Shown here: one piece after another, positions 13,290 to 63,462 of the stretch
Position numbering within the stretch: the first letter of the stretch is position 1
How the letters are laid out: each line of letters starts with the position of its first letter
Origin: an uncultured Gammaproteobacteria bacterium
Lineage (GTDB): Bacteria; Patescibacteriota; Microgenomatia; Woykebacterales; RBG-16-39-9b
Assembly (NCBI GenBank): GCA_964643435.1
Contig: CAZXPY010000001.1
Location: 74,802 to 138,801, forward strand
DNA: 64,000 nucleotides
Reading direction: 5' to 3'
Made by a program: the position numbers and the translations under genes
The notes under the pieces: generated by a model
What the model saw: only the letters and a program-made list of their open reading frames with translations
Database searches by the model: none
Told to the model about the DNA's origin: nothing

Positions 13290-13394
13290 AGTTAAATTTT
13301 TATTTTTTTAAGTAAAATGACACTTTCCTTTTTGATTACAATTTCCAGAAGTTCTTTAGGAAAAATTTATAATTAATGAAAAAGATGGGTCGCG

Positions 13395-16619: not shown

Positions 16620-16664
16620 TTTGATAATCTAATTGTTTTATACTTGCCGCCAATTCTTAATAAA

Positions 16665-19440: not shown

Positions 19441-19487
19441 AATTCATTTTTTCCCTTTTGTATGGTAAAATTATGCACACATAAATT

Positions 19488-46276: not shown

Positions 46277-47372
46277 AATTTTAATTTCATCACATTCCTA
46301 CGTTGTAGGATTAAATCAACAAAAAATAGAAGCTCTTTCCAAAATAGACGGCCTTAAGATTAGTTTAGTAGTACCAACTACTTGGAAAGCACCGCTACGT
46401 TACACCGAACTTGAAAAGAGAACCGCTAAAACTTACCAAATTATTCCTCTTAATACTCGTTTTAACGGAAATAACGACCGTTATTTTTTCCCGTTTTTTT
46501 CACTATTCAAAATTTTCTGGAGGCTACGTCCAAAAATTGTTCATATCGAAGAAGAACCTTGGTCAGTTTCTTTACTTGAATTTAGTTTTTTAAGTAGAAT
46601 TTTTGCGGCAAAAACTATTTTTTTTACTTGGGAGAATATTGAGCGACAACACCGGTTTTGGTATAAATTATTTGAGAAGATAAACTTAAAACTAGCTTCT
46701 GGCGCGATTGCCGGTAATAGAGAAGCCAAAGATCTATTACTAAAAAAAGGTTTTCAGAAACCTATTTTAGTCTTACCGCAACTTGGTGTAGATCTTAACT
46801 CCTTCAAGAGAGAAAAAGAAAAAAATGAAAAATTCACTATTGGTTTTGTTGGTAGATTTGAAGAGCAAAAGGGAGTAATGGTCTTGCTCGATGCTGTTAA
46901 ACAGTTGCCCTTCTCCTATAAACTTTTGCTGGTTGGAAGCGGACTCTTGAAAGAAAAAATTGATTTCTATATAAAAGAAAACAACTTATTAGATAAAGTA
47001 GAGTTGATTCAAGGAGTAACTCATAACCAAGTCCCTTCTTATCTAAGCAGAATGGATTTATTAGTTTTGCCTTCTCTAACAACTTCAGTTTGGAAGGAGC
47101 AGTTCGGCCATGTTTTAGTTGAAGCAATGGTTTCTAGTGTGCCCGTTATTGGTTCAGATAGTGGGGCTATTCCAGAAGTTATCGGAGACGCAGGACTTAT
47201 TTTTAAAGAAGGAAACAGCAATGACTTAGCAAAAAAAATAGAACAATTTTTTAGAAACAAGAATTTACGCGAAGAAATGATAAAAAAAGGATTGGAAAAA
47301 GTAAAGGAAAATTATACCCAAGAAAAAATCGCTGCGGAAACTTATAATTTCTATCAAAAGATTTTAATATAA
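46269..47372 (+). CDS. GT4 family glycosyltransferase
   Basis: ..EQFGHVLVEAMVSSVPVIGS... ATG 46269 (8-nt overlap with upstream gene) is preferred over track start 46203. Confidence 0.65.
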   Translation: MVRILISSHSYVVGLNQQKIEALSKIDGLKISLVVPTTWKAPLRYTELEKRTAKTYQIIPLNTRFNGNNDRYFFPFFSLFKIFWRLRPKIVHIEEEPWSVSLLEFSFLSRIFAAKTIFFTWENIERQHRFWYKLFEKINLKLASGAIAGNREAKDLLLKKGFQKPILVLPQLGVDLNSFKREKEKNEKFTIGFVGRFEEQKGVMVLLDAVKQLPFSYKLLLVGSGLLKEKIDFYIKENNLLDKVELIQGVTHNQVPSYLSRMDLLVLPSLTTSVWKEQFGHVLVEAMVSSVPVIGSDSGAIPEVIGDAGLIFKEGNSNDLAKKIEQFFRNKNLREEMIKKGLEKVKENYTQEKIAAETYNFYQKILI

Positions 47373-49175
47373 TTGATACCCAATAATATTTTCTTCATCG
47401 TAGAATTTCTTTGCTTTTAAAACATTTTCAATAAGATCGACACTTAGTCCTAGACTTCTTCTTCCTTCCTCGTAATATTTTTTATGAATTAGTATGTATT
47501 TTACCTTTAAATCTTTGAAGGTTTTTTGGACGATATCTCTATTTAAATCTTCTTCTAAAACTAATTGATTTCCCGGTTCGGCAAGATAATGGAGAAGAGG
47601 TATCTTTCGGTAATAAAAAACATTTTCTGCGGGGAGTCTAGCAACTGTGCCTCTAAATATCTTTTTTTGATGAACGCTTTGGTAAAACTGTAAACTGCCG
47701 ATTGGTCCGTAACCAAAAATAAAGTTTCCAGTATTCCAGCCAACCGGTAAATCTAAAATTACAAAATCACCACTTTCGCGAGCTATATCTTGATAAATCT
47801 TTGGGACAGTAAGGTTGGTTGTAGGAAGCGATGGTGTGTATTCTATCAATAATAGGCTTACGGTAATCGCAAAAATAATCAAACCCACTTTTTTCTTGGT
47901 TCTGGAAAGAATCTCTTTTAAAGAAAAGGCGGTTAGAATTGCCAGAGGCAACATTGTAAACGGGTGCATTCTAATCGGCTCTTGGATACCGCCGATAAAG
48001 GGTAATTTGTGGTAAAAAATAAAGGGAAGCAAGAAAAACTTGGTAGGATTCAGCTCAAATTGATTAAAAGTACTTCCACTCTCAAAAAAATGAAGCCTAG
48101 GACCAAGACTTAAAATAAAAAAAGAAAAGGCTAAAAAGTAGAAAAGACCCAACTGCTTTTTTTCCTCGATATTCTTTTTAAGTAGAAAAAAGACATAAAT
48201 TAGTACTAAAAATAAAACAGTGTAGCCGATATATAGTGTACCTTCTGTACTACTGATGGCAGATGGAGCTTTCGAAAATTTATTAAGCAGAGGATTTCCC
48301 GCCCAAGGAAAGAGAAAATAAGAAATATCCGCACCGTAAACGTTTTGAACACTTAAGGAAACGCCAGGATGGAATCCCTCTTTTATGGTTTTAAAAGCAG
48401 CCAAAGCAAAAGGTGAAAAAATCACTAGGAAAGTAATGCCGGCGGTTACTAAACGTTTTAACGTAGAGGTCGAAAGCAGTTCTTTACCCCAAAAAATAAA
48501 ATAATAAAAAATAACCAGTAATGTTAAAAACATTGTGAAGGAAGTGTAGGTTAGATCATTAAGTCCCTGAAGACCAAAAAATAATCCTGTAAAAAAAGCA
48601 TTTTTGTAACTACCCTCCTTTAAAGTTTTCAATAGAAAAAGTAAATAAAAAGGAGTAAACCAGGCAGTAATTAAATTTGTATGGTAATCACCGCTTTGCG
48701 CAAAAATATAAGGAAAAAAAGCGAAGACCAAACCGGCAAAAAAGGAAGCGAGTTTTGATTTTGTTAAATAAAATGACAAAAAAAAGGTACCTAAACCTGA
48801 CAAGACAAAACCAATATAAAAAATAATATTAGAGGCAGCTATCAAGCCGAATAAAAATTGAAACGGCAGCGAAAAAATAGCATTGGTAAAGGTATGAATA
48901 TCAAAGGTTCGATTTATAACTTGAGGATAAAAAATATAATCCGTATAAAAGGGATTTTGCCTTAAATCCAATACTGAGAATTTAAACCACCACAAGTACC
49001 AGACATGGGTTGGACTATCCTCATCCACCCCTGGAATATTGGTAGTAAATTTAAATATGAGCGGAAAAGTAAAAAATATTGCGAGAAGTAAATAAATAAG
49101 AGAAATAATAAGTAAATGACGGTTAGCATTAAGTTTTTCAACTATTTTCACTGAATTAGTATACTTTTCTTTCAC
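47364..49175 (-). CDS. Large polytopic membrane protein, GT-C-like putative glycosyltransferase (paralog of 37913..40033)
   Basis: 603 aa with many TM helices; convergent with the upstream GT4, stop codons overlapping by 9 nt. Confidence 0.4.
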   Translation of the reverse strand: MKEKYTNSVKIVEKLNANRHLLIISLIYLLLAIFFTFPLIFKFTTNIPGVDEDSPTHVWYLWWFKFSVLDLRQNPFYTDYIFYPQVINRTFDIHTFTNAIFSLPFQFLFGLIAASNIIFYIGFVLSGLGTFFLSFYLTKSKLASFFAGLVFAFFPYIFAQSGDYHTNLITAWFTPFYLLFLLKTLKEGSYKNAFFTGLFFGLQGLNDLTYTSFTMFLTLLVIFYYFIFWGKELLSTSTLKRLVTAGITFLVIFSPFALAAFKTIKEGFHPGVSLSVQNVYGADISYFLFPWAGNPLLNKFSKAPSAISSTEGTLYIGYTVLFLVLIYVFFLLKKNIEEKKQLGLFYFLAFSFFILSLGPRLHFFESGSTFNQFELNPTKFFLLPFIFYHKLPFIGGIQEPIRMHPFTMLPLAILTAFSLKEILSRTKKKVGLIIFAITVSLLLIEYTPSLPTTNLTVPKIYQDIARESGDFVILDLPVGWNTGNFIFGYGPIGSLQFYQSVHQKKIFRGTVARLPAENVFYYRKIPLLHYLAEPGNQLVLEEDLNRDIVQKTFKDLKVKYILIHKKYYEEGRRSLGLSVDLIENVLKAKKFYDEENIIGYQLY

Positions 49176-50713: not shown

Positions 50714-51427
50714 TTACTTAGCTTTAGCGGTCATTAAGAGAAATGGGAGTAATGGTTTGATCGGCATAATTTTCTCCGCAAAGTTGTCAAGATAGAAACC
50801 GATCCGGCTATTAACGATAAACGGGGGGAAAAACCCAAAATATCTAAAATTGGTTACTTCGAACCCATTATCAGAAAGTTTTCTAGTTATGTTGGCTTTA
50901 GTCATATTCAAAATTCCTTTTTCTCCTTCCCAACTCATATCTTTCGAAAGTGTAAATTGGAGATAATAAAGTAGGTTAAACAAATTAGGTTCAATAAAAC
51001 CAACTTGACCATTTTTTTTGAGGCGGCGATGAATACTTTCAAAACTTTTATCAAGATTTTCTAAATGATGGAGAATGAAGAAACCGATAATAGCGTCAAA
51101 CTTTTTATTTGTAAAATTGGATAACTTCTCAACGTCTCCCTTAATTAAAGTAAGATTTGGGTTTTTTCCCGCAAACTTACGGAAGCGCTCCAACATATCC
51201 TCTGATAGATCAATTCCAGTGATTTTCAAACCCTTCTCCAATAAAGAAAATGTAAATCTCCCCATCCCAACGCCTATTTCTAGGATATCATCATTAGGTT
51301 TTAAATTTAGGCTAGAAGCGAGCAAACCCGAAAGTTTATTTGTATAATTACTTAATTTTGGAATAAGATATTGGTGATCTTTTTGATACAATAGTTTTTG
51401 ATATTCTTTTTGCGATATTTTTTTCAC
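50714..51427 (-). CDS. Class I SAM-dependent methyltransferase
   Basis: ILEIGVGMGRFT motif I; DxxxxDAI. Confidence 0.65.
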   Translation of the reverse strand: MKKISQKEYQKLLYQKDHQYLIPKLSNYTNKLSGLLASSLNLKPNDDILEIGVGMGRFTFSLLEKGLKITGIDLSEDMLERFRKFAGKNPNLTLIKGDVEKLSNFTNKKFDAIIGFFILHHLENLDKSFESIHRRLKKNGQVGFIEPNLFNLLYYLQFTLSKDMSWEGEKGILNMTKANITRKLSDNGFEVTNFRYFGFFPPFIVNSRIGFYLDNFAEKIMPIKPLLPFLLMTAKAK

Positions 51428-51431
51428 GGCT

Positions 51432-53036
51432 ATGCAAAAAATTTTGAACGCTAGTTACGAAAAAGCTTTTTATATTATTCTTTTTATAGTAACAGTTATT
51501 TTCTTAAAAATTAACTCCACCTATAGTTTTATTGGAAGGGGAGATTACGCAAATTACGCTACTGTGGCAAGAAATTTAGTTGTAGGTCGTGGGTTTACGG
51601 TTGATTTTATTGCCCAATATTTTATTCCCTACGAGAGCGTTCATCACCCGGAAGATATGTGGCCACTGCTTCAGAGCGTATGGATGGCGGCTAGCTTTTT
51701 AATCTTCGGTGTTAATCAATTTTCGGCGAGACTACCAAACGTCATTTTTCTTGCTTTTCTTTCGTTAGCTTCATATTTCATCGCTAGAAAGCTATTTAAT
51801 AAACAAATCGCTTTTTGGGCAGGAATATTAACTCTCCTAAATACAAACCTAATTCTTTATTCAACCGAACTAATAACCAGCGATGTTGCTTTTGCGGCCT
51901 TTTCATTGATAATTTTCTACTTGGGTTCATTGCTTATTATTGAATTAAGAGATGGAGGAACAAGTTACAAAAAATTCTTTCTTTTCGGAATATTGAATGG
52001 TTTAGCGGTTTTACAAAAACCCCTGGCTATTATTTATTTGCCCCTTTATTTAGTTATTTTTGCAATTGTCGCTCGCAAAAAAATAAAACTAATTTTTAAA
52101 CCAGTTGTTTTTTCTTTGATCGGAGCTTTAATTTTTACCGCACCATTTTTTATAAGAAATTTAAGATTATTTGGAACATTTCTGCTACCAGTCGAAAACT
52201 ACCTTTCCTACCTGATTAAATACACCCCTTACGAAGCTATCTTTAGTATTTACTATGATAAGTTACCTTCGTTTAGGACAGCTCTGGAGGGAGGTTTTAT
52301 TAATTTCTTAAAGATTAATTTCACCTATTTTCGGTTTGGAGTAGATACTTTTGTTTATAAAGACTTGTTAATTCCTTATACAGTAATAGTTTTAAGTTTA
52401 TTGGGAATTGGTATTTTAAAAACTAGAGAGCAGAAGTCTTTCTTTTTCACGCCAATAATATTTTTTTTAATTTTTTCGGCGGTTATGACTTTTTATTGGC
52501 ACTACGAATCTCGTTATTACGCCTCGTTTATCCCACTTGCTAATATGTTGGCTGTATACGCTCTTTTTGTCTTTGTTGAAAAGTTTTCAAATCCTTCGAA
52601 GGTTATTATTATCGTAATTTTAGCTTTAATTACTTTTCTGCCAAGTATTAAATCAATTTACCTTGGACTGGGTAAAAAACCAATTGATCCTTCCTTGAGG
52701 GCATATGAATGGATTAGAGATAACACACCAAAAGAAGCGGTAATTTACGGTTTAGGACCTTGGGAACTCCACTATCATTCTGAAAGAGCAGCGCTAATGA
52801 TACCATACAATGGGTTCGGGGACATTTTGTATATGGCGAAAAAACATCAGGTTAATTATCTTGTCCTTGAATTTTTGAAAGAAATAAAACGTCCCGCTCT
52901 TGAAGATTTATATACAGGCAAAGAAACCGAAGTTTTCAGCCGTATTTATCAAGATCCAGAAAAGGTGCTTATTTACAAAATTAATTGGGAAAAAGTTAAT
53001 CTGGAAAGCTATCCAAAACCAGAATGGTTCAAATAA
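51432..53036 (+). CDS. GT-C membrane glycosyltransferase, ArnT/PMT_2-like (GT39/GT83)
   Basis: ..DMWPLLQSVWMAASFLIFGVNQFSARLPNVIFLAFLSLASYFIARKLF.. matches the ArnT/PMT N-terminal loop-TM signature; 534 aa. Confidence 0.6.
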   Translation: MQKILNASYEKAFYIILFIVTVIFLKINSTYSFIGRGDYANYATVARNLVVGRGFTVDFIAQYFIPYESVHHPEDMWPLLQSVWMAASFLIFGVNQFSARLPNVIFLAFLSLASYFIARKLFNKQIAFWAGILTLLNTNLILYSTELITSDVAFAAFSLIIFYLGSLLIIELRDGGTSYKKFFLFGILNGLAVLQKPLAIIYLPLYLVIFAIVARKKIKLIFKPVVFSLIGALIFTAPFFIRNLRLFGTFLLPVENYLSYLIKYTPYEAIFSIYYDKLPSFRTALEGGFINFLKINFTYFRFGVDTFVYKDLLIPYTVIVLSLLGIGILKTREQKSFFFTPIIFFLIFSAVMTFYWHYESRYYASFIPLANMLAVYALFVFVEKFSNPSKVIIIVILALITFLPSIKSIYLGLGKKPIDPSLRAYEWIRDNTPKEAVIYGLGPWELHYHSERAALMIPYNGFGDILYMAKKHQVNYLVLEFLKEIKRPALEDLYTGKETEVFSRIYQDPEKVLIYKINWEKVNLESYPKPEWFK

Positions 53037-53762
53037 ATGAGAAATCAATCCCTTTCGATAATTGTCCCTGTCTTTAACGAAGAATCAAGAATAGAAAAGG
53101 CAATAAGCGAATTAGAAAAATATCTTTCAGGTCAAAATTTTTCCAGCCAAGTAATTTTTGTTGACGACGGGAGTAATGATAAAACTTTGAAAAAAATAAA
53201 AGAGCTAAAACCGAAACTCTATTTTGAGGTAATTTCTTATAAACCTAACAGGGGAAAAGGTTATGCTATAAAACAAGGAGTAGCAAACGCACGTGCAGAT
53301 TATCTTCTCTTTTGTGATGTAGATATGTCGACACCTCTTAATGAATTTAATAAATTTCTGCCTTTTATTAGGAAAAAAATACCGGTTATTATTGGAACTA
53401 GGAAAGCCGCGGGCGCAAAAATAATAAAAAGACAACCATATTTGCGTCAGAAAATGGGGGAGGTCTTTACAATGCTTTCTAATATTTTGTTGCGCAGCAG
53501 TGTCAGTGATTTTACCTGTGGGTTTAAGTGCTTTTCTAGAAGAGCAGCCGAGAAAATCTTTTCGCTCTCTACTATTAATCGTTGGTCCTATGACAGTGAA
53601 ATTCTATTTCTCGCCAACAAGCTTGGGTTTAAAATAATAGAAGTTCCGGTAGTTTGGAAAAATGATAGTCGGACAAAGGTTAATTTAACTAAGGATATTA
53701 TCCAATCTTTTACTGATTTACTAAGAATTAGATTAAATGATAGGTTGGGACATTATGATTAA
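53037..53762 (+). CDS. GT2 polyprenyl-phosphate sugar synthase (Dpm1/ArnC-like)
   Basis: SIIVPVFNEESRIE, VDDGSNDKT, DVDMS. Confidence 0.75.
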   Translation: MRNQSLSIIVPVFNEESRIEKAISELEKYLSGQNFSSQVIFVDDGSNDKTLKKIKELKPKLYFEVISYKPNRGKGYAIKQGVANARADYLLFCDVDMSTPLNEFNKFLPFIRKKIPVIIGTRKAAGAKIIKRQPYLRQKMGEVFTMLSNILLRSSVSDFTCGFKCFSRRAAEKIFSLSTINRWSYDSEILFLANKLGFKIIEVPVVWKNDSRTKVNLTKDIIQSFTDLLRIRLNDRLGHYD

Positions 53763-55065
53763 GAAAATTACCAAAAAAGAGTTTCTATTCCTTCTTACCC
53801 CCCTTGTTTTAGGCGCAGTAATTCTCTTTTTTAAACTTGGTAGTTTATTTCAAAATTTAAATGGAGATGAATATGCTTTTTTGCTGATCTCAGAACAGTT
53901 AAAAGGGGAACCATACTTACCATATCTCATCTGGCCTAAAGATTTGGGTTCAACTCATACTTTATTGCCCTATTTAATACAAATACCGATAGCTTTTTTT
54001 GGAATAACTAATTTTGCGGTTCGGTTTATTCCCGCTCTATTTGGATTATTGGGAATAATTACCTTTTATTTACTTTTACGCAATTTATTTGAAAGTTCCC
54101 AGATAGCCTTTATCGGAGCTACTTTACTAGCACTAACACGTTGGTACTTTACTATATCCAGATTAACCTACGAATTATCAGAAATGCTTTTCTTTGCCAT
54201 AGCTAATCTGTTATTTTTAGTTTTGTTTTTAAAAGCAAAAGACGAAAAATTTAAATTTAAAAATTTAACTGTTAAAAAGAGCTTTGTATATGTTTTTCTT
54301 GTTGGTCTGACTTTAGGTCTTCTGCAACACTCTTACGCGGCAGCAAGAATTTACCCTTTTCTTTATCTAATATTATTTATTTTTTACTTTCTTTATAAAA
54401 GGAAAAAATTTTTAGAAAACGTGATAAATTTTTTTCTTTTTTCAATCGCTTTTTTAATAATTATCTCTCCTTTAATTTATGTTTGGCTCAAACACCCAAA
54501 TGCTTTTGATGCCCGTGGTGCAGAACTCGTTTTTGCCCAAAACCTCTCTTTTAATGATTTAATTTGGTCGCTGAAACAATCTACTTTACGCACTTTAGGG
54601 ATGTTTCAGCTAAGAGGAAGCGATGTTAGTTGTTATAATCTTCCGAACCTGCCGATGCTTGACCCTTTAAGCGGTTTTCTTTTCCTGGTGGGATTAATCT
54701 TATCTTTTACTACTCTTAGACCGGTATATTCTTTTGTATTTCTGGCTTTTCTACTTTTTTCACTGCTGCCAAGCATTTTAAGCTACTGGCCAGCCACTCC
54801 GCAAGGATTGCGGGCTGCTGGCTCAATCGTTCCAATTGTTTTGTACACGACAATTGGGTTAGAAACTGTGGCTAAACTTTTTAAAAAGTATTATATTCAC
54901 ATCATTGTTGTGGTTATTTCAGTAATTGCGATCGTTAATTTACAGATTTATTTCAGATATCAACCGCAGTTACAAGATGATTGTTTTAAATCTAAAGTAG
55001 AAAATTTTGAGGACTTCAAAAAACACTTTCTTAAAGAAACCGGCAGTGTTAAATTTATAAGATGA
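53737..55065 (+). CDS. GT-C membrane glycosyltransferase, ArnT/PMT_2-like
   Basis: ..NGDEYAFLLISEQL.. ..PYLIQIPIAFFGITNFAVRFIPALFGLLGIITFYLLLRNLF..; 442 aa. Confidence 0.5.
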   Translation: MIGWDIMIKKITKKEFLFLLTPLVLGAVILFFKLGSLFQNLNGDEYAFLLISEQLKGEPYLPYLIWPKDLGSTHTLLPYLIQIPIAFFGITNFAVRFIPALFGLLGIITFYLLLRNLFESSQIAFIGATLLALTRWYFTISRLTYELSEMLFFAIANLLFLVLFLKAKDEKFKFKNLTVKKSFVYVFLVGLTLGLLQHSYAAARIYPFLYLILFIFYFLYKRKKFLENVINFFLFSIAFLIIISPLIYVWLKHPNAFDARGAELVFAQNLSFNDLIWSLKQSTLRTLGMFQLRGSDVSCYNLPNLPMLDPLSGFLFLVGLILSFTTLRPVYSFVFLAFLLFSLLPSILSYWPATPQGLRAAGSIVPIVLYTTIGLETVAKLFKKYYIHIIVVVISVIAIVNLQIYFRYQPQLQDDCFKSKVENFEDFKKHFLKETGSVKFIR

Positions 55066-56165
55066 AAAATTTGATTAAGTTATCAACTCCAATTATTGGT
55101 AAGGAAGAAATAAATGGAATAGCAGCAGTTTTGAAGAATGGTCAAATCTCCCAAGGTCCTTACGTTGAAGCATTCGAAAGAGAGTTTAGTCGCTTTGTTG
55201 GTGCGAAATATGCGGTCGCGGTTTCTTCGGGAACAGCCGCTTTGCATCTAACCCTTTTAGCCTTAGATATAAAAAAAGGCGACGAAGTTATAACGACTCC
55301 TTTTTCTTTCATTGCCACAGCAAACTCTATTACTTACACCGGTGCCAGGCCAGTATTTGTAGATATTGACGAAACTTTCAACCTTAAACCTGGTTCTGTT
55401 GAAAAGAAAATTACAAAAAATACAAAAGCAATTTTGGTGGTTCATCTTTTTGGTTTACCAGCGGATATAAAAACTATTAATAAAATTGCCAAAAAATACA
55501 ATTTAAAAATAATTGAAGATGCCTCTCAGGCTCACGGTGCAAAAATTGGTAATAGATATATTGGAACTTTTGGTAACGCCGCTTGTTTTTCCTTTTACGC
55601 GACTAAGAATATTACTACTGGCGAGGGCGGTATGGTTGTAACTAACGAAAAAAAATTAGCGGAAAAAATTAGGAACTTAAGAAATCATGGTCGAAACAAA
55701 AAGGGACAGTATTCTATTTTGGGTTATAATTTTCGAATGAACGAAATACAAGCAGCATTAGGGTCCGCTCAATTGAAAAAACTTAAAACCAATAATCACC
55801 AAAGAATAAAAAATGCAATTTATTTAAGTAACTCTTTAAAAGATATCAAAGGAATTATTTTACCGACAGTTCCTGGCGGATTCACTCATGTTTTTCACCA
55901 ATACACACTAGTAGTAACCCCCCTAGTAAAAAAGACAAGAGAAGAAATCGTAGAATCAATGAATAAAAGTGGGATTGAAGTGGGAATTTTCTATAATCCG
56001 CCTATCCACAAACAACCTCTTTACAAAAAATTAGGCTACAGAGATAAATTACCAGTTGCTGAAAGATTTTCAAGAGAAGTTTTATCATTACCAATCCATC
56101 CTTTAATTACTAAAAAAGATCTGGATTATATAGCGAGATCTTTTAGGGAGTCTTTAAATGAATAA
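55062..56165 (+). CDS. DegT/ArnB/WbpE-like PLP-dependent sugar aminotransferase
   Basis: ..AVSSGTAALHL.., ..CFSFYATKNITTGEGGMV.. (Lys of the internal aldimine); 367 aa. Confidence 0.8.
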   Translation: MKNLIKLSTPIIGKEEINGIAAVLKNGQISQGPYVEAFEREFSRFVGAKYAVAVSSGTAALHLTLLALDIKKGDEVITTPFSFIATANSITYTGARPVFVDIDETFNLKPGSVEKKITKNTKAILVVHLFGLPADIKTINKIAKKYNLKIIEDASQAHGAKIGNRYIGTFGNAACFSFYATKNITTGEGGMVVTNEKKLAEKIRNLRNHGRNKKGQYSILGYNFRMNEIQAALGSAQLKKLKTNNHQRIKNAIYLSNSLKDIKGIILPTVPGGFTHVFHQYTLVVTPLVKKTREEIVESMNKSGIEVGIFYNPPIHKQPLYKKLGYRDKLPVAERFSREVLSLPIHPLITKKDLDYIARSFRESLNE

Positions 56166-57084
56166 GATTTTAAGGTTGGGAGTTGTTGGTGTTGGTTCAA
56201 TTGGCAAAGAACACGTCCGGATCTTAAGTAAGTTGAAAGATTGTGTGCTGGTAGGTATCGTGGATACGGATCAACAACTCGCGGCGGTAGTTGCTGAAAG
56301 ATTTTCAACGCGCCGGTTTAAAAAACCCGATGATCTCTTTGCCCAAAACATTGACGCAATTAGTATTTGTACTCCGACCTCATCCCATTTTAGAATAGCG
56401 CGAACGGCTATTGAGAAAAATATCCACTCTTTAATTGAAAAACCAATAACAAAAACTATTTCTCAAGCTAAGAAACTAATAGATCTAGCCGAGAAGAAAA
56501 AATTGAAGCTTATGGTTGGATACGTTGAGAGATTTAACCCAATCGTAGCGGTTATAAAAAGAAGAATAAAAGGGGAAACGGTCATATCGATTAATTTCAC
56601 GCGAGTCGGGCCTGTCCCACCGAAAGTAGGCGATATTGGCATTACTTTGGATTTGGCAACTCACGATATTGATCTTTTAAGATATTTATTAGAGACGGAT
56701 TTTAAAAAAATTAAGTCTGTTTCTTCGACCCAAAACAATCGTGAGGATGCGGCGGTTCTTAGCTTTAAATTGGGCAACGGAACAATTGCTTCAATTGTGA
56801 CGAATTGGTACACTCCTTATAAGGTTAGAAAAATAGAAATAGCCACAAAAAATAAATTCATTGTTGGCGATTTTATTTTACAAGAAGTTCACGAGCATTA
56901 TAATTACAAGGTGGGTGGAACATATTCTACAAAAGTAATACCAGTGAAAAAAACCGAACCCCTAAAAGAAGAGTTAAAAGCTTTTGTTGAGTCCATAAAA
57001 CTAGATAAAATTACAAAAGTTACTGGCGAAGATGGTTTAGAGGCTTTAAAAATAGCCGTAAGATGTACAAAGTTAGCTTCTTAA
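56158..57084 (+). CDS. Gfo/Idh/MocA-family NAD(P)-dependent sugar oxidoreductase (WbpB-like)
   Basis: LRLGVVGVGSIGKEH Rossmann motif; EKP motif. Confidence 0.7.
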   Translation: MNKILRLGVVGVGSIGKEHVRILSKLKDCVLVGIVDTDQQLAAVVAERFSTRRFKKPDDLFAQNIDAISICTPTSSHFRIARTAIEKNIHSLIEKPITKTISQAKKLIDLAEKKKLKLMVGYVERFNPIVAVIKRRIKGETVISINFTRVGPVPPKVGDIGITLDLATHDIDLLRYLLETDFKKIKSVSSTQNNREDAAVLSFKLGNGTIASIVTNWYTPYKVRKIEIATKNKFIVGDFILQEVHEHYNYKVGGTYSTKVIPVKKTEPLKEELKAFVESIKLDKITKVTGEDGLEALKIAVRCTKLAS

Positions 57085-57783
57085 GGCAAATAAAAGCATA
57101 TCTTTGATAGAAGCAAAAACTAGCTTAAAATTAAGCTGACTTGGGTTTTCTTTAGGGTAATGAACAACCGGAACGCTAGCGATTTTAGAACCGGCCCTAC
57201 TTGCTTTAATAAGTCTTTCGCTTTCAGCAAAAACGCTTGTAGATTTAATATCTAAACTTTTGTAAATATGAGATTTTACTAGTTTTGCACAGCCAGCATC
57301 ATGAACCTCAACACCAAACAGTAGTTTTGTAAAGAAATTAAATCCCCAAGACACAAATTTCCGCCCTAAATTGTATTTTTTTACTTTCCTTTTCGCAACA
57401 ACAATATCAAAACCCTCTTGCATTTCTTTCATTAAAGAGGGAAGAATTGACATCTTAATCTCATTATCAGCACCATTAAAAAAAGTCAGATTTCCTTTAG
57501 CCCCAGAATAAAGATCTTTTAAACTTTCTTCAATTCCAAAGTTTTTAATATGGTTAATAATTCTTAGTTTTGGATATTTCTCTCTTAATTTTGATAAAAT
57601 TTGCGGTGTTTTATCGGTGCTGCCGTCATCTACCACTAAAATCTCATAATTGTTAGTTAGTTTTGATGCTTCTTCGTCAGCACTTCTAATAGATTCACTT
57701 ATGTTTTCTTCTTCGTTATAAGCTGGAATTGCGATGGTTAAAGATAAATTTTTCTTCATAAAATTTGCTAAAATCGGAGACAC
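57073..57783 (-). CDS. GT2 polyprenyl-phosphate hexose synthase (Dpm1-like)
   Basis: LTIAIPAYNEEENIS, VDDGSTDKT. The true start may be the internal Met (MKKNLS..), which would reduce the overlap with the HAD gene. Confidence 0.7.
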   Translation of the reverse strand: MSPILANFMKKNLSLTIAIPAYNEEENISESIRSADEEASKLTNNYEILVVDDGSTDKTPQILSKLREKYPKLRIINHIKNFGIEESLKDLYSGAKGNLTFFNGADNEIKMSILPSLMKEMQEGFDIVVAKRKVKKYNLGRKFVSWGFNFFTKLLFGVEVHDAGCAKLVKSHIYKSLDIKSTSVFAESERLIKASRAGSKIASVPVVHYPKENPSQLNFKLVFASIKDMLLFALRS

Positions 57784-58402
57784 TTTCTAAAACAAGATCA
57801 GCACCAGCCGCAGTTAATTCTTTTTTATTTCCTACCCCCGTTAATACCCCTATTGTAAAAGCACCGGCACTTTTACCAGCTTTTATATCATAAGGGTGGT
57901 CTCCAATAACGATTATTTCTGAAGGTTTCAGATTTAATTTATTAATTGCAAATATTATTCCCTCAGAACTGGGTTTGGGGTTTAAAACTGTTTCCCGTCC
58001 TACTAATACATCAAAGGGTTCTAAATTGAATTTATCTAGAGTCGTTTTTATTGCCATTTCAGAAGTTCGAGAAAATATACCTGTCATAATATTTTTACTT
58101 CGTAAATACTCTAGAGTTTGTTTAGTTCCAGGAATAAGAGTAGCCTCTTGAGAGGCTAGACATTCTTCTTCTGTAAGTATTTTAAGCGCCGCTTTCTTTA
58201 AATCTTCGTTTTCAGCTAGGCTCTTTCTCTCAAGCGCAACTATTGCGTCGTTTATTTTTTGTAAAATTGGTTTAAAATTAAAGTCCTTGGGCAATCCTCT
58301 TTCAGCGAAAAACGCCCTCACCCTTTCTCTAATTGATTCAAGGTCAATTCGTATTCTTACTAAAGTGTTTTCAAAATCAAACAAAATTAGTTTGACCGAC
58401 AT
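57716..58402 (-). CDS. HAD-superfamily phosphatase (phosphoglycolate phosphatase / beta-PGM-like subfamily)
   Basis: Motif I LILFDFENTLV; motif IV IVIGDHPYDIKAGKSAGA. Confidence 0.7.
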   Translation of the reverse strand: MSVKLILFDFENTLVRIRIDLESIRERVRAFFAERGLPKDFNFKPILQKINDAIVALERKSLAENEDLKKAALKILTEEECLASQEATLIPGTKQTLEYLRSKNIMTGIFSRTSEMAIKTTLDKFNLEPFDVLVGRETVLNPKPSSEGIIFAINKLNLKPSEIIVIGDHPYDIKAGKSAGAFTIGVLTGVGNKKELTAAGADLVLESVSDFSKFYEEKFIFNHRNSSL

Positions 58403-58409
58403 AATTTAA

Positions 58410-59465
58410 TTATATCTCCGTAAAGGTCCATTTATTGTTTTTGATCATAACTGGACCACCGTCTGGAATTCTAACCCAATAAATATCAGCTGGAGTGTTA
58501 TTTATTAATGAAACGTTTGGTATTCGCTCGCCATAAGCTAATTTTACAAATATCAGTGGCATATTAATTCCGATAGTAGAAAAAAATAATGAAGTAGTAA
58601 AAAACCTTCCTGGATTAACTTCTGTTACACAGGGAATACCAGATTTATTCTCCTTTGTGTCTACAACGTAAATACCGTTTGGCTTTGAATCTAACGTTTT
58701 TACAGTATCGATAGCTATTTTATTTACGCGATCATTATGAACTGTTTTTTGTATCGCTGTTGTGCCTGTTACTCCACTTGGAGAAAGCCCAGATTGTACC
58801 CATTCTAACCTCTCTTTACCCTGTGAACATATCAACTTCCCCTTATACCAGATGCTCACCCAAGATACCTCTCGACCATCTAATTTTTCACTGGCTAAAA
58901 AATTTCCCCACCTTAAACCTCTATATGACCAATAATTTACCCAAGCCTTTGCTGACTCAAAATTATCAACCGGTAAACTGGCTCGACCACCAGCACCTCT
59001 ATTCGCTCTTAGCCAAACAGTACCATCTATTTCTATAAAGACCTCCTTGAGGGAAACCTCATCTGATAATTTAAAAGTTTTAGCGACAGGCACCCTTGCT
59101 TTTTCAAGAGTTTGGTAAGTCAACCATTTATCCTGGCTTATATTTATGGCTTTTTTCGAGGGAAGAAATACTTTGGCGTTTAACTTCTGCCGGTAATCAG
59201 AAATTATCTTAACTTCTGGATCTGGTTGTGCATGAATAAATTCAATATCTTCAAGTTCGATTACTTTATTAATTTTATTAATATAGTTTAGTTCCTCACC
59301 TTTTTTGTGCCTAATTAAATATCTCTTATCAACCGGAGACATCTCCAGATAATACTTATTTGTGTCAGCACCAACAATTTTTATCTTCTCTTTCGAGAGT
59401 CTTAATGACTTTATAAAATTTATTCCTGCTGACCCGCCGCAGCCAAGAACTAATATTTTTTTCAT
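58410..59465 (-). CDS. ATP-grasp family ligase (carboxylate-amine ligase-like)
   Basis: About 351 aa; N-terminal MKKILVLGCGGSAG; central Gly-rich loop and C-terminal ..VTEVNPGRFF.. are consistent with the ATP-grasp fold. Confidence 0.5.
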   Translation of the reverse strand: MKKILVLGCGGSAGINFIKSLRLSKEKIKIVGADTNKYYLEMSPVDKRYLIRHKKGEELNYINKINKVIELEDIEFIHAQPDPEVKIISDYRQKLNAKVFLPSKKAINISQDKWLTYQTLEKARVPVAKTFKLSDEVSLKEVFIEIDGTVWLRANRGAGGRASLPVDNFESAKAWVNYWSYRGLRWGNFLASEKLDGREVSWVSIWYKGKLICSQGKERLEWVQSGLSPSGVTGTTAIQKTVHNDRVNKIAIDTVKTLDSKPNGIYVVDTKENKSGIPCVTEVNPGRFFTTSLFFSTIGINMPLIFVKLAYGERIPNVSLINNTPADIYWVRIPDGGPVMIKNNKWTFTEI

Positions 59466-59469
59466 CTTA

Positions 59470-61086
59470 TTACCACAGTTTGTTTTTGTAAGTTATCGGA
59501 ACATCAACAATTGCTGCCTTTTCAGAATTCAAAGCTTTTTTCAAAGTTGGAGTCAAATTCTTAGCTGAATTTACTCTAAAACCCTTACCTCCATAAGCTT
59601 GAGCTAATTTAACAAAATCGGGATTTCGGAAATCAACACCAAAAGAACTACCAAAAGTTTTTTCCTGTTCATACTTTATTATTCCGTAAGAACCATCATT
59701 TAAAATAACCACTGTAATTGGTAAATCATAATTAACCGCAGTTATGAATTCTGAAGCCGCCATTTGAAAACCACCGTCTCCAACCAGCGCAATTACTCTT
59801 TTGTCTTTATTTAAGAGCTTAGCGGCAATTGCTCCCGGTAGAGAAAAACCCATCGCTGATTGACCGTTTGAGAAGTTAATAGTTTTAGGGTATAAGGCTT
59901 CAAAAAATAAACCCATATATTGCTTATGCTCACCAACATCAACAATAATTATATCTTGGTTATCTAATAAAACTCTAAGTTTTTTAATCAAGTTTAAAGG
60001 ATCTATTGGAAAATCTTCTTTACTAAACTTATAATTTTTTGGATCGAAACGATGAAACGGTAAGTATTTATACTTTTTTGGCGTGAGATTAGAACTATTT
60101 ATTTTTTTAAAGAAGTATTTATAATCGCAAACTATATCAATATCTGGTCGATAAAATTTCTGCCCTGTTCTGGTTGAAGTATCAATATTTATTATCTTTT
60201 TCCTTATACCTTCACTCCATATCTTCGGTTTTATTCCCTCTGCGTAATCGTAACCAATATTGATAAGGAGATCTGATTTTCTAATGCTTTCAGCGGTTTT
60301 TGGTAGGTGGCGGCTTAGCACACCAAGATATAGGGGATGGTTCGAGGGGATTGCACCTTTCCCTTGGAAAGTTGACAAAGCGTATATATTAAACTTCTCC
60401 ATAAATTTTATAAGTTCATTAGTGGCGTTTTGACGAATCACTGCCCCGCCAACTAAAATAATCGGAAATTGAGCCCTTTTTATTTCTTTAATTACCGATG
60501 AGATATTGGGAAAATTTTTCTTTTGCCGATTGATTTTAGAAGAAATTTTTATCCTTGAATTAAAAGGGTTATCTAAGATATCAACTGGAAGGACAATATG
60601 AACAGGTCCTGGTCTTTCTTCTTCCGCAATCTTAAAAGCTAACTGTAACTTCTGAGGTATTTCACTAACGTGTTCTATAGTCGTTTGAAATTTTGATTTA
60701 TGGGAAAATTCCTTTTTCATATCAATGAATTGGTGAGTATCAACGTGCCAGGCAGTTTTTGGTAGTTGGCTAGTTATGCAGACGAGAGGGGAACGATCAG
60801 AATGAGCATTTTTAATTGCTGTACCAATATTTGTGGCTCCGGGTCCTAGGGTTGTATAGCAAACCCCGGCTTTGCCGGTTAACCGCCCATAAACATCAGC
60901 CATAAAACCAGCAGATTGCTCATGAGTAGTTCTAATAAACCTAATTTTTGAGGATTTTTTTAGCTCTTTAAAAAAAAGAGCTTCGGCAGTCTTACCTTTG
61001 TTATCTTTAGTATCTCCAGGTATGCCAAAAATATATTTGACCCTAAGTCTCTCTAAAGTTTTTACTAGTAATACCGCTCCATCCAC
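59470..61086 (-). CDS. Thiamine diphosphate-dependent enzyme, acetolactate synthase large subunit-like
   Basis: N-terminal PYR domain (..YIFGIPGD.., ..HEQSAGFMADVYGRLTGK..GVC..T.GPGATN); C-terminal PP domain with ..GDGGFQM.. ThDP-Mg motif. Confidence 0.8.
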   Translation of the reverse strand: MDGAVLLVKTLERLRVKYIFGIPGDTKDNKGKTAEALFFKELKKSSKIRFIRTTHEQSAGFMADVYGRLTGKAGVCYTTLGPGATNIGTAIKNAHSDRSPLVCITSQLPKTAWHVDTHQFIDMKKEFSHKSKFQTTIEHVSEIPQKLQLAFKIAEEERPGPVHIVLPVDILDNPFNSRIKISSKINRQKKNFPNISSVIKEIKRAQFPIILVGGAVIRQNATNELIKFMEKFNIYALSTFQGKGAIPSNHPLYLGVLSRHLPKTAESIRKSDLLINIGYDYAEGIKPKIWSEGIRKKIINIDTSTRTGQKFYRPDIDIVCDYKYFFKKINSSNLTPKKYKYLPFHRFDPKNYKFSKEDFPIDPLNLIKKLRVLLDNQDIIIVDVGEHKQYMGLFFEALYPKTINFSNGQSAMGFSLPGAIAAKLLNKDKRVIALVGDGGFQMAASEFITAVNYDLPITVVILNDGSYGIIKYEQEKTFGSSFGVDFRNPDFVKLAQAYGGKGFRVNSAKNLTPTLKKALNSEKAAIVDVPITYKNKLW

Positions 61087-61189
61087 AATTAAAGAAAAAT
61101 TATAGCAACGCTACGTTAAACTGTCTAGGTTTATAAGCATAGCCTAGTAAGCTTATTGTTAATTTGTTAGTATAGGTAAGTATAAAAAT

Positions 61190-62362
61190 ATGAAAATTTT
61201 GATGATTAATGATAAATACGAAAGTGTTGGTGGTGCCGAAAATTATCTGATTGGGGTCTGCGAAGGCTTAGAAAATTTAGGACACGAGACTTTTGTGATT
61301 TATTCTGAAGGCGGAGCAGTCAGAGCTAAAAGAAAATCTTTTTTTGTTCCAAATTTAGAAATTAGCGAAACTCTAGAAATCATTGAAAGCGAGAAGCCAG
61401 ATATTATCAATTTGCAAAATGTTTTTAATAATGATCTTTACCGGTTGTTACCGAAACTCAAACCGACAGTTAGATACGTCCACGACCACCGAACTTATTC
61501 ACCGGGTTCGGCCAGTATGCATTTTGTTTCAAACCGAATTTGCGAAGCCCCGTTAAGCTGGTGGCACCAGCCAATCTTTGCTTACACAGAGCGTTGTATG
61601 AGCCGTAATCCTATAAAAATTGTTAGGCTAGTTTTAGAGAGATTAGAACTTTTAAAACTCCATAATAACCTACAAAAAATCTTGGTTAATTCAAATTATG
61701 TTAAGAATAGGTTGATTCAAAACGGAGTAAGTGGAGATTTAATTTTTGTATTGCCACCGTTTGTAAATATCCTTCAGGATAAAGTAGTCACAAAATCAGA
61801 AGAACCAATTATTTTGTATGTTGGGAGACTTTTTGTGGAAAAAGGAGTTGAATTTGCTTTCAGGGCTGTTGGGGAGATACCAAACGCTAAGCTTTGGGTG
61901 GTAGGGGATGGTTGGGATAGAAGGCGATTAGAAAAACTAACTTTAAAATTGGGTCTTTCAGAGAGAGTTAGATTTTTTGGGTGGGTTGAAAGAGAAAAAT
62001 TAGGAAAATTTTATAACGAGGCATCACTGACAGTTTTACCTTCAATCTGGCCAGAGCCTTTTGGTATGAGTGGAATTGAGTCTTTAAGCGCAGGTAAACC
62101 GGTTGTTGCCTTCAAGGTTGGGGGAATTCCTGAATGGTTAACTGATAATAAAGTTGGTTTTTTGGTCCCAAGAGCAAACGAAAAAGAGTTAGCAAAAGCA
62201 ATTAAAACCTTGTTAGATAATCCTTCTTTGCGGGATAGATTTGGGAGGTTAGGAAAGAAATTAGTAAAAGAAAAATTTAATAAAGAAGATCATCTCAAGA
62301 AGTTGTTTGGAATATACGAAGAAGCAGTTAAAAATTTTAAAAGCTCATTCGCCACGATTTGA
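61190..62362 (+). CDS. GT4 family glycosyltransferase
   Basis: ..EPFGMSGIESLSAGKPVVA.. Confidence 0.7.
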   Translation: MKILMINDKYESVGGAENYLIGVCEGLENLGHETFVIYSEGGAVRAKRKSFFVPNLEISETLEIIESEKPDIINLQNVFNNDLYRLLPKLKPTVRYVHDHRTYSPGSASMHFVSNRICEAPLSWWHQPIFAYTERCMSRNPIKIVRLVLERLELLKLHNNLQKILVNSNYVKNRLIQNGVSGDLIFVLPPFVNILQDKVVTKSEEPIILYVGRLFVEKGVEFAFRAVGEIPNAKLWVVGDGWDRRRLEKLTLKLGLSERVRFFGWVEREKLGKFYNEASLTVLPSIWPEPFGMSGIESLSAGKPVVAFKVGGIPEWLTDNKVGFLVPRANEKELAKAIKTLLDNPSLRDRFGRLGKKLVKEKFNKEDHLKKLFGIYEEAVKNFKSSFATI

Positions 62363-63462
62363 TGGCCCCTTTTGGTGAGATGTCCATCCTCCGGAAAAAA
62401 TAAAGGAAACTCTTTACCTTCCTTAAAGGTTTTTAAGAAACTAATGAATTCAATATTCTCTTTTTTGGCAAAGTCCTCTAAATCTTCGATATGACGGAGG
62501 GGATAAATTTTGCCGATTCTAAAACCGTGAAATAGGCGACCAGTTGCCCACTCTTTATCAGAAACTTGGTGAGCACTCGGATGGGCTGTTAGTAGGAACG
62601 GAATATTCTCCTTTTTAAGCAACTCTTTTATCAGTAAAAGATGCTTCTCTGGCAAGATAAAAGCCTTTTCATAGTCTTCTGGTTTTTCCTCTCGGGTAAG
62701 CGCAAAAGTATCGTTTCTTATATCTCCTTTGGTATATCCGGGTACCGCTTTACCTAAAAGTCCTTTAATTTTAATTGCGGCAAACAAATAGAATTTTGAG
62801 TTATCGTGTAAGAACTGCTTTATAACTAGCGGTAAAAACGGAATAGTAACTTCTCCGCCGGTTTTGTTTTTCTGATCAAACTCCTTTCTTAAGTTTTTCT
62901 CGGGATCCACTGCAATTGGTTCTCCTTTTTCATTACTAGTTGTGTTCTTTTCATATTCAAGCTCGTTTTGAAAGTCAGTAATATCAAAATCCAAAATTAC
63001 CAAATCGGGTTTTAGTTTCAGTCCAAAGTTTTTTAAATATAAGTATTCTAAAACTGGAGAGTAACTAATAACCCCACCATTAATCACCTCGACGTTTTTA
63101 TATTTTTCGTTGAGTTTATTCTCTAACTTTTTAACAGAGGTCTCTTCTAAATCTACCCCTTGGCCTTCAACAAAAGAATCACCCAGTATTAAGATGCGGT
63201 AGAAGCCCTCGGGTTTAACTTTACTTATTTGCCTATCTCGTAAACCCAGTGAGTTAATTCTATAGTCAATATTCCACTCGGGAGTTACATACTTACAATT
63301 TGAATTTGGTTTTAATTTATGGTGAATTATTTTGTCGCTGCTTCTACATTCGGTTGGTAAAACGGATTTAAATTCTGTTAGGCGGGTGTAAATTTCGGCT
63401 AATAAAAAAGCAGCTAAGAATCCAAAAAATACTAAAAGCAAATTTTGAAAAGCCTTTTTCAC
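62290..63462 (-). CDS. Membrane-anchored SGNH/GDSL-family hydrolase (putative polysaccharide O-acetyl esterase/transferase)
   Basis: N-terminal TM anchor; block I RILILGDSFVEGQG (GDS motif); about 390 aa. Confidence 0.45.
   Translation of the reverse strand: MKKAFQNLLLVFFGFLAAFLLAEIYTRLTEFKSVLPTECRSSDKIIHHKLKPNSNCKYVTPEWNIDYRINSLGLRDRQISKVKPEGFYRILILGDSFVEGQGVDLEETSVKKLENKLNEKYKNVEVINGGVISYSPVLEYLYLKNFGLKLKPDLVILDFDITDFQNELEYEKNTTSNEKGEPIAVDPEKNLRKEFDQKNKTGGEVTIPFLPLVIKQFLHDNSKFYLFAAIKIKGLLGKAVPGYTKGDIRNDTFALTREEKPEDYEKAFILPEKHLLLIKELLKKENIPFLLTAHPSAHQVSDKEWATGRLFHGFRIGKIYPLRHIEDLEDFAKKENIEFISFLKTFKEGKEFPLFFPEDGHLTKRGHQIVANELLKFLTASSYIPNNFLR

Follow-up and report, generated by a model that had tools for sequence, protein, structure and literature searches.

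Two separable glycosyltransferase modules, rather than one Arn-like operon, in a glycan island of a Woykebacteria-like bacterium

Introduction

The Arn pathway (ArnA, B, C, D, E/F and T) places aminoarabinose on lipid A by way of a keto sugar nucleotide, transamination by a DegT-family enzyme, loading by a family 2 glycosyltransferase (GT2) and transfer by a glycosyltransferase of the C fold (GT-C). An earlier note on the DNA studied here, a 64,000-nt stretch of contig CAZXPY010000001.1 (hereafter, the window), had read five contiguous plus-strand genes at 51432-57084 as a single module of this kind. We examined that block and then the larger region 50714-63462, and found that the block is one gene module (module A) joined to the first half of another (module B), the second half having been omitted. 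We propose that these are two independent systems, lying side by side, for extracytoplasmic glycosylation from polyprenyl-phosphate-linked sugars, module B serving a tailored amino sugar; we put the probability of this reading at roughly 0.55.

Parts of this logic are known from elsewhere. In mycobacteria a short soluble GT2, PpgS (Rv3631), makes polyprenyl-phosphate galactosamine, and the GT-C Rv3779 carries out transfer to a wall polymer, in bacteria that have no lipopolysaccharide. Glucuronamide tailoring in Campylobacter jejuni HS:2 uses an ATP-grasp amidoligase and a HAD phosphatase, and YerE is a thiamine diphosphate (ThDP)-dependent sugar carboligase related to acetolactate synthase. 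The bacteria of the candidate phyla radiation (CPR) are episymbionts not yet brought into culture, and they attach to their hosts through their surfaces; to our knowledge, almost nothing has been learned about their envelope glycans. Oxidoreductase/aminotransferase pairs that make amino sugars include GnnA/GnnB, WbpB/WbpE and archaeal counterparts, GnnA (PDB 7bvj) being a UDP-GlcNAc 3-dehydrogenase (bioRxiv 10.1101/2024.11.05.622173). The hallmarks of extracytoplasmic glycosylation are a GT-C-fold transferase and a polyprenyl-phosphate-linked donor from a GtrB-like synthase (PMC11127046, which also supplies the definition of three-component systems). Such systems include GtrA/GtrB/Gtr* of Shigella and Salmonella and CsbB/GtcA/YfhO of Firmicutes.

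The block joins two modules

The open reading frame (ORF) list and Pfam matches agree with the positions and families that had been given for the five genes (Table 1). Neighbouring ORFs abut or overlap by 4-26 nt. All five are confirmed as real genes, and not chance ORFs, because they are long, match their families strongly and have conserved orthologues. The start of GT-C2 is likely the ATG at 53755, although its ORF opens at 53737, because its homologues are 436 aa long.

Table 1. Features of modules A and B, with window coordinates; values after family names are E values unless given in bits.
Feature	Coordinates	Strand	ORF length (aa)	Matches and remarks
SAM-dependent methyltransferase	50714..51427	-		Pfam Methyltransf_11 1.7e-20
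GT-C1	51432..53036	+	534	PMT_2 7.5e-13; polytopic, GT-C_A fold, C-terminal extracytoplasmic alpha/beta domain
GT2_A	53037..53762	+	241	Glycos_transf_2 4.6e-24; Dpm1/GtrB-like, soluble
GT-C2	53755..55065 (ORF 53737-55065)	+	442 (436 from 53755)	PMT 2.3e-7, PMT_2 1.2e-6; minimal, GT-C_A fold, first gene of module B
DegT-family PLP sugar aminotransferase	55062..56165	+	367	DegT_DnrJ_EryC1 4.4e-131
Gfo/Idh/MocA NAD-dependent dehydrogenase, UDP-GlcNAc 3-dehydrogenase-like	56158..57084	+	308	GFO_IDH_MocA 5.2e-29
GT2_B	57073..57783	-		Glycos_transf_2 7.1e-26; soluble, Dpm1/ArnC-like, last gene of convergent operon
HAD-superfamily phosphatase	57716..58402	-		HAD_2 7.1e-27; position conserved in four loci
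ATP-grasp ligase ('carbamoyl-phosphate-synthase-like', PylC-like N domain)	58410..59465	-		ATP-grasp_3 1.4e-8; PRK12767 88 bits
Acetolactate-synthase-like ThDP enzyme	59470..61086	-		TPP_enzyme_N, _M, _C; first gene of convergent operon
Sigma-70-like promoter match	61099..61127	-		TAGACA-17-TATAAT, extended TG, 11/12 matches; 12 nt upstream of ThDP start
SGNH/GDSL-like esterase, membrane-anchored	62290..63462	-		Lipase_GDSL_2 3.1e-7 (under Pfam cut-off); LA_2490-family GDSL 1.1e-9

Contigs encoding homologues of GT-C1 or GT-C2 were gathered, and 27 window proteins were mapped onto them by BLASTP, giving a synteny set of nine related loci: L003, L004, L006, L008, L011 (cited together with L012), L013, L015, L018 and L019. 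The nearest named relative of GT-C1 is from Candidatus Woykebacteria (CPR/Microgenomates), and by sequence the host is a Woykebacteria-like CPR bacterium and the relatives are Candidatus Woykebacteria-like CPR bacteria.

Module A (50714-53762) consists of a divergent S-adenosylmethionine (SAM)-dependent methyltransferase gene, GT-C1 and GT2_A. It was present in L003, L004, L006, L008 and L011, with GT-C1 at 49-91% identity, an orthologue of the methyltransferase (39-85% identity) directly upstream of GT-C1, and GT2_A following GT-C1 in five of the five. The first four of these loci have the module with no adjoining GT-C2, aminotransferase or dehydrogenase gene; what follows GT2_A there is either a membrane protein of 636-639 aa with an opposite-strand DegT-like gene, or a UDP-glucose dehydrogenase with a short-chain dehydrogenase/reductase (SDR).

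Module B comprises GT-C2, the aminotransferase, the dehydrogenase and a convergent minus-strand operon (53755-61086 in all), plus the SGNH protein at 62290-63462. The minus-strand operon is transcribed in the order ThDP enzyme, ATP-grasp ligase, HAD phosphatase, GT2_B, with its genes overlapping or 4-7 nt apart, and in the window the plus and minus operons converge with an overlap of 12 nt (genes ending at 57084 and 57073). The set is complete in the window, in L011/L012 (GT-C2 82% identical), in L015 (46%) and in L019 (49%). L013 (48%) has all of it except the aminotransferase, the GT-C2 stop abutting the dehydrogenase start, and L018 has GT-C2 and the aminotransferase before the contig ends. 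Next after the ThDP gene comes the SGNH/GDSL-like protein, in the window as well as in L011, L013 and L015. Neither GT-C1 nor GT2_A accompanies these genes in L013, L015, L018 and L019. In L015 and L019 module B has RecO and a tRNA synthetase as neighbours; module A is missing there, as is any further glycosyltransferase in the vicinity.

Apart from the window, only its 82%-identical relative L011/L012 was thus found to have the five genes in this arrangement. Because the halves of the block recur apart in related loci, the block is not one module, and the claim of a single Arn-like module was not borne out; the genes form two units that recur separately. The operon that the earlier note left out, 57073-61086, is the one that goes with three of its five genes.

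A profile search of genome and metagenome contig collections with the GT-C2 alignment returned known loci only (L016 being L013, and L017 being L011). In an exhaustive profile search the GT-C2 orthogroup formed a single cluster at 50% identity, the next proteins scoring 237 and 187 bits, followed by a continuum of PMT_2-type proteins.

Three of the relatives deserve separate mention. L013, the only module B locus without the aminotransferase, is the same as L016 and lies on CAYGGA010000003.1; its gene content and identities of 43-63% fit CPR relatives, as against the Gammaproteobacteria label of the record, and it is likely a mislabelled bin. In L015 a NodU/CmcH-type carbamoyltransferase (11563-13341) follows the SGNH gene downstream of module B, with no counterpart in the window. 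L004 (GCA_001816815.1, Woykebacteria) has at 18253-20837 a separate trio of Gfo/Idh/MocA dehydrogenase, left-handed beta-helix (LbH) acetyltransferase and DegT genes in the classical WbpB/D/E-like layout; its dehydrogenase and aminotransferase are 28% and 42.5% identical to the window proteins, and it adjoins ATP-citrate-lyase-like genes.

Comparison with the Arn pathway and other described systems

By their family and structure matches, the genes place the locus in the broad class that includes Arn, yet it is not an Arn system. The two GT-C proteins had been called ArnT-like. GT-C1 scored 20.8 bits against an ArnT cut-off of 567 and GT-C2 gave no match; the GT-C_A fold is generic in both, ArnT matching no better than STT3/AglB, PMT or ALG12. 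With the ArnC model the GT2s scored 42.3 bits (GT2_A) and 67.5 bits (GT2_B) against a cut-off of 529, and both lack the C-terminal transmembrane (TM) helices. The aminotransferase reached 269 bits against an ArnB cut-off of 631, and among PDB matches ArnB ranks under 7b0d, QdtB and perosamine synthases. One statement that holds is that no ArnA-type formyltransferase occurs: Pfam scans covering 58 of the 60 window ORFs of at least 120 aa found no formyltransferase, no polysaccharide deacetylase (ArnD) and no SMR/EamA (ArnE/F) domain, the two ORFs not scanned (31053-31466 and 34873-35235, both on the minus strand) being nested in longer opposite-strand genes.

Two further assignments of the earlier note fail on position. 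The GT2 at 53037 had been given the task of loading the amino sugar, but it is the GT2 at 57073-57783 that accompanies the aminotransferase and dehydrogenase across loci. The UXS-like gene at 20776, to which the note had pointed as the decarboxylase, is some 30 kb away and in no module B locus. It is an SDR that adjoins a UDP-glucose dehydrogenase, in a pair (19488-21717) that abuts module A in L006, and it gave no ArnA match at E<=1e-30. The pair was rejected as part of the unit, on its distance of 30 kb and its absence from module B loci.

What module B has in common with Arn is a likely keto sugar nucleotide, DegT transamination, GT2 loading and GT-C transfer. Part of the locus is most simply read as oxidation of a UDP-sugar, transamination, loading of polyprenyl phosphate and GT-C transfer outside the membrane, so this piece of the earlier logic stands while the single Arn-like module does not. 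The differences are that a Gfo/Idh/MocA dehydrogenase (C3-type) takes the place of the ArnA decarboxylase, that formyltransferase, deformylase and ArnE/F are missing, and that no lipid A is expected. The HAD phosphatase, ATP-grasp ligase and ThDP enzyme, which are always with module B, are additions with no Arn counterparts.

The three-component systems offer a closer parallel for the delivery step. Both modules have a Dpm1/GtrB-like GT2 (by homology only) beside a GT-C protein with an acidic residue after TM1. A GT2 beside a GT-C implies a polyprenyl-monophosphate monosaccharide donor and modification outside the membrane. Unlike those systems, modules A and B contain no flippase gene, and the membrane helices found at the C termini of GtrB and ArnC are missing from their GT2s. 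Module B further adds five sugar-tailoring genes, and the host here belongs to the CPR.

With GnnA/GnnB, WbpB/WbpE and the archaeal pairs, module B shares a Gfo/Idh/MocA oxidoreductase translationally coupled to a DegT aminotransferase, and the best family and structure matches of its dehydrogenase fall within that group. It differs in scoring under their equivalog cut-offs and in having no WbpD-like acetyltransferase; its product, moreover, appears bound for a Dpm1-like GT2 and a GT-C, not for lipid A or a cytoplasmic repeat unit. Likeness to PpgS/Rv3779 is weaker: GT2_A scored 62 bits with the PpgS model, far under its cut-off of 370, the amino group would be supplied here de novo by dehydrogenase and aminotransferase and there by deacetylation, and the GT-C families differ. 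With C. jejuni HS:2, compared by description only, the locus shares an ATP-grasp and HAD pair in a glycan locus; in the window this pair goes with a ThDP enzyme and what appears to be a lipid-linked donor route, and module B has no uronic-acid dehydrogenase. By this analogy, a phosphorylated partner may be ligated first and lose its phosphate afterwards. A literature search on acetolactate synthase with an ATP-grasp glycan cassette, on CPR GT-C systems and on PDB 7B0D found nothing relevant.

Proteins of module B

The dehydrogenase gives the clearest indication of the sugar chemistry. It scored 274 bits over its full length with NF040723 (archaeal UDP-GlcNAc 3-dehydrogenase; cut-off 450), its best PDB match is 7bvj (4.4e-35), and the motifs EKP and THDIDL are conserved; in these respects it resembles UDP-GlcNAc C3 oxidases rather than enzymes of a C4 route. 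An inositol or aminocyclitol route was considered and rejected, the IolG model giving 127 bits against those 274. The aminotransferase, a pyridoxal phosphate (PLP)-dependent enzyme, conserves the PLP lysine (SFYATKN). Its best PDB match is 7b0d (1.7e-88), others being QdtB (4.5e-74), ArnB (1.2e-62) and WbpE (1.5e-61), and the top matches include the 3-aminotransferases QdtB, WlaRG-like 5u1z, DesV-like 2oga and WbpE. Its action at C3 would follow from that of its dehydrogenase partner.

GT-C2, whose gene overlaps the aminotransferase start, has no soluble C-terminal domain and almost no extracytoplasmic domain. In loop 1, after TM1, it carries an invariant D38-E39 aligning with the 'DE' motif of PMT. 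Sequence comparison with solved structures gave E values of ~0.02-0.2 only, making fold comparison necessary; Pmt4 was among the best structural matches, yet the scores do not separate PMT, STT3, ALG12 and ArnT. Pfam PMT and PMT_2 are the sole family matches of the GT-C proteins, and a Pfam scan found no MIR domain in GT-C2.

GT2_B is the glycosyltransferase that co-occurs with GT-C2, aminotransferase and dehydrogenase, unlike GT2_A (53037); orthologues (57-74% identity) occupy the same place in L011, L013, L015 and L019. It has no TM segment, and its PDB matches are ArnC (9.2e-15), dolichyl-phosphate-mannose (Dol-P-Man) synthase (2.6e-14) and GtrB (4.4e-14). The best solved relatives of both GT2_A and GT2_B are exclusively polyprenyl-phosphate glycosyltransferases, other GT2s matching at 1e-7 or weaker.

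The remaining three enzymes of the convergent operon would tailor the sugar. The ThDP enzyme has orthologues of 57-93% identity in four loci, and the ATP-grasp ligase of 63-90% in L011, L013, L015 and L019. The ThDP enzyme scored 495.2 bits with NF006187 (PRK08322, acetolactate synthase large subunit), just under the cut-off of 509, and its PDB matches are catabolic acetolactate synthases (3e-84 to 2e-69) and, at a greater distance, carboxyethylarginine synthase (1.7e-64). Window scans found no small-subunit or other ilv-type gene. Phosphonate synthesis was set aside as a role, the ThDP enzyme having the full three-domain acetolactate-synthase architecture and no phosphoenolpyruvate mutase being present. 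For the ATP-grasp ligase no solved close relative was found; it has more than 850 homologues, archaeal ones (Bathyarchaeia, DPANN and other archaea) at 45-52% identity. In one homologue, P0102 (568 aa), an N-terminal ATP-grasp is fused to a C-terminal HAD domain, 34% identical to the window HAD protein, in the order of the window genes; this supports a functional link between the two.

The promoter match upstream of the ThDP gene is the best of the region. Its support is positional only, as the regional site count is not above that of shuffles; the overall counts from promoter and terminator scans of the region were likewise no higher than in shuffles. The SGNH protein has one N-terminal TM segment; outside the membrane it may serve to attach an O-acyl group or to take one off.

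Proteins of module A

GT-C1 has ~9 hydrophobic segments. Its AF2 model (pLDDT 80.6, pTM 0.83) is that of a GT-C_A enzyme with a C-terminal alpha/beta domain, and Foldseek ranked AglB (6e-9), eukaryotic STT3 and ArnT (8e-8) together, with TM-scores of about 0.55-0.61; comparison by sequence with solved structures, with single sequence or profile, gave no match. An aspartate in loop 1 after TM1, D38, is invariant in 14 homologues, as D but not DE. GT2_A, without a TM helix, has as its best solved relatives the Pyrococcus Dol-P-Man synthase (7.5e-17), GtrB (6.7e-12) and ArnC (1.7e-7), and it conserves the canonical D-x-D (DVDMSTP) and DFTCGFK. We presume it to be the polyprenyl-phosphate sugar synthase of module A, which probably uses an ordinary, possibly methylated, sugar.

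A proposed route and its rivals

On the observed gene content, operon layout, two-module architecture, folds and family-level homologies we would build the following scheme. In both modules a soluble Dpm1/GtrB/ArnC-like GT2 would take a single sugar from its nucleotide-sugar donor and load it on polyprenyl phosphate; once this lipid-linked sugar had been flipped, the GT-C would transfer it to an acceptor outside the membrane. For module B, the dehydrogenase would begin by oxidizing a UDP-HexNAc, most likely UDP-GlcNAc, at C3, and the DegT enzyme would transaminate the keto sugar to a 3-amino sugar. The ATP-grasp/HAD pair might then tailor this amino sugar with a carboxylate that the ThDP enzyme produces or alters; our best guess for the substituent is an N-acyl group from a pyruvate-derived or phosphorylated carboxylic acid, dephosphorylated after ligation. 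In this order of steps, GT2_B would next put the finished sugar on the lipid carrier, a flippase encoded outside the module would move it across the membrane, and the minimal GT-C2 would pass it to its acceptor, perhaps a protein, a wall polymer or a lipid. Module B would thus probably deliver a further-tailored 3-amino sugar. In L015 and L019, which have no other glycosyltransferase nearby, GT2_B is the only cytoplasmic one available for the product. More tentatively, and in our view less likely than not, the route may be an undescribed one, the ThDP enzyme and the ATP-grasp/HAD pair equipping the 3-amino sugar with an unusual acyl or carbon-branched group ahead of its delivery to the CPR surface by GT2_B and GT-C2.

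Several observations weigh against this scheme. The GT2_B family has an invariant non-canonical [GA]-A-D-N-E in place of D-x-D, which is a caveat on its activity. The aminotransferase and dehydrogenase fall under every NCBIfam equivalog cut-off, and the PDB ranking of the aminotransferase mixes 3- and 4-aminotransferases (perosamine synthase, ArnB) with similar scores, so that the case for C3 chemistry comes mainly from the dehydrogenase. No GtrA, SMR or MATE flippase ORF was found in 47-64 kb, and neither module encodes one; the sole GtrA domain in the window is fused to the GT2 at 9521, and two Wzx genes lie elsewhere in the island. The lack of the aminotransferase in L013 implies that an amine from that enzyme is not obligatory for the ATP-grasp step in every lineage. 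Lastly, the sole archaeal ATP-grasp context examined (L020) has no ThDP, HAD or GT-C gene nearby, its neighbours being a DUF354 protein and a UDP-sugar dehydrogenase fragment; on this account a description of the cassette as a whole as archaeal was also dropped.

Of the other explanations, we give most room to the one in which one or both GT-C proteins are PMT/GT39-like O-glycosyltransferases acting on S-layer, pilin or other secreted proteins. The invariant D-E of GT-C2 aligning with the PMT motif, the presence of Pmt4 among its top structural matches and the restriction of family matches to Pfam PMT and PMT_2 all speak for it, but GT-C2 lacks MIR domains and nearly any extracytoplasmic domain, structural scores do not separate PMT from STT3, ALG12 and ArnT, and the acceptor is not readable from sequence; we regard it as possible, at somewhat long odds. 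Less probable is a reading in which the dehydrogenase and aminotransferase supply cytoplasmic GT4 and GT2 enzymes with a soluble UDP-2-acetamido-3-amino sugar for a Wzx-flipped repeat unit, with GT-C2 and GT2_B as unrelated neighbours. Such a route would suit an island rich in GT4 and GT2 enzymes with two Wzx flippases, as well as the cytoplasmic pathways fed by the closest characterized relatives of the dehydrogenase, and a classical dehydrogenase, LbH acetyltransferase and aminotransferase trio does exist separately in Woykebacteria (L004). Against this, module B lies amid housekeeping genes in L015 and L019 with no other glycosyltransferase in reach, GT-C2 overlaps the aminotransferase start, and the same eight-gene order at 46-57% identity in different surroundings argues for one functional unit.

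The single Arn-like operon itself, in which the GT2 at 53037 would load an undecaprenyl-phosphate amino sugar with a free amine and one or both GT-C proteins would decorate an anionic envelope polymer, lowering surface charge, now seems to us improbable. Its five genes are indeed co-directional and overlapping in the window and L011/L012, both GT2s count ArnC among their solved relatives, and a free amine would be possible given that no WbpD-type N-acetyltransferase occurs in module B at any locus. Yet the halves are separate in every locus but those two, the Arn equivalogs are missed widely with no ArnA, ArnD or ArnE/F, and the constant presence of an ATP-grasp ligase in the module lowers the likelihood of a free amine. 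A branched-chain sugar also has little claim: a YerE-type carboligase (a likeness drawn by description only) would put a two-carbon branch from pyruvate onto the keto sugar, the aminotransferase and ATP-grasp ligase then acting on that branch or on an adjacent position. In its favour, the ThDP enzyme is homologous to acetolactate synthase over all three domains, while neither the organism nor the locus makes branched-chain amino-acid synthesis its obvious role, and in L013 both it and the dehydrogenase are kept although the aminotransferase is missing; nonetheless, the aminotransferase would have to share one keto intermediate in competition with the ThDP enzyme, and the best NCBIfam and PDB matches of the latter are plain acetolactate synthases.

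If two independent delivery systems are indeed what the locus holds, its polyprenyl-phosphate-sugar and GT-C mechanism is a well-known one, and the value lies in new sugar chemistry and in the host lineage rather than in a new principle. The analysis redefines the functional units and corrects a tempting annotation as Arn-like charge modification. Module B is a compact, rare, conserved eight-gene cassette that could be reconstituted in vitro, and its combination of a ThDP carboligase-type enzyme and an ATP-grasp/HAD pair with a probable lipid-linked amino-sugar donor was matched to no described pathway.

The surrounding glycan island

The window has a G+C content of ~35%, and tRNA and Rfam scans of it gave 0 matches. 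A glycan-biosynthesis island of ~54 kb runs from ~9.5 kb through the window end, with many GT4 and GT2 enzymes besides the two Wzx flippases. Between 9521 and 63462 it includes no fewer than seven polytopic membrane proteins of GT-C-like, YfhO-like or DUF2079 type (at 21718, 24514, 37913, 47364, 49214, 51432 and 53755) and no fewer than six short Dpm1-like GT2s, the GtrA fusion at 9521 included; such numbers suggest a large set of systems for extracytoplasmic glycosylation. Two of the island's large multi-pass membrane proteins, at 47364-49175 (minus strand, 603 aa) and 37913-40033 (plus strand, 706 aa), are paralogues (26% identity, E 1e-26) that belong to no Pfam or NCBIfam family and have faint YfhO similarity; an orthologue of the former is near module B in L011 and L013.

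A second DegT-family gene (33250-34452) has His at the PLP-lysine position (STYVAH vs SFYATK) and RfbH as its best match, and is probably a ColD/E1-type 3-dehydratase rather than a transaminase. The GDP-mannose 4,6-dehydratase at 12315 scores above its equivalog cut-off, a hint of a 3,6-dideoxyhexose route. Two other proteins lie amid sugar-nucleotide genes: a CofD/YvcK-family protein (16644-17666), and a stand-alone LbH protein of 233 aa (30621-31322) that corresponds to the C-terminal acetyltransferase half of GlmU, with ~250 bits to GlmU models over residues 221-448 only. At the window edge, the ORF at 59-1369 combines a C-terminal transaldolase/FSA piece (residues 2-99) with a GHMP kinase domain, and is either an odd fusion or a gene whose start was mis-called there.

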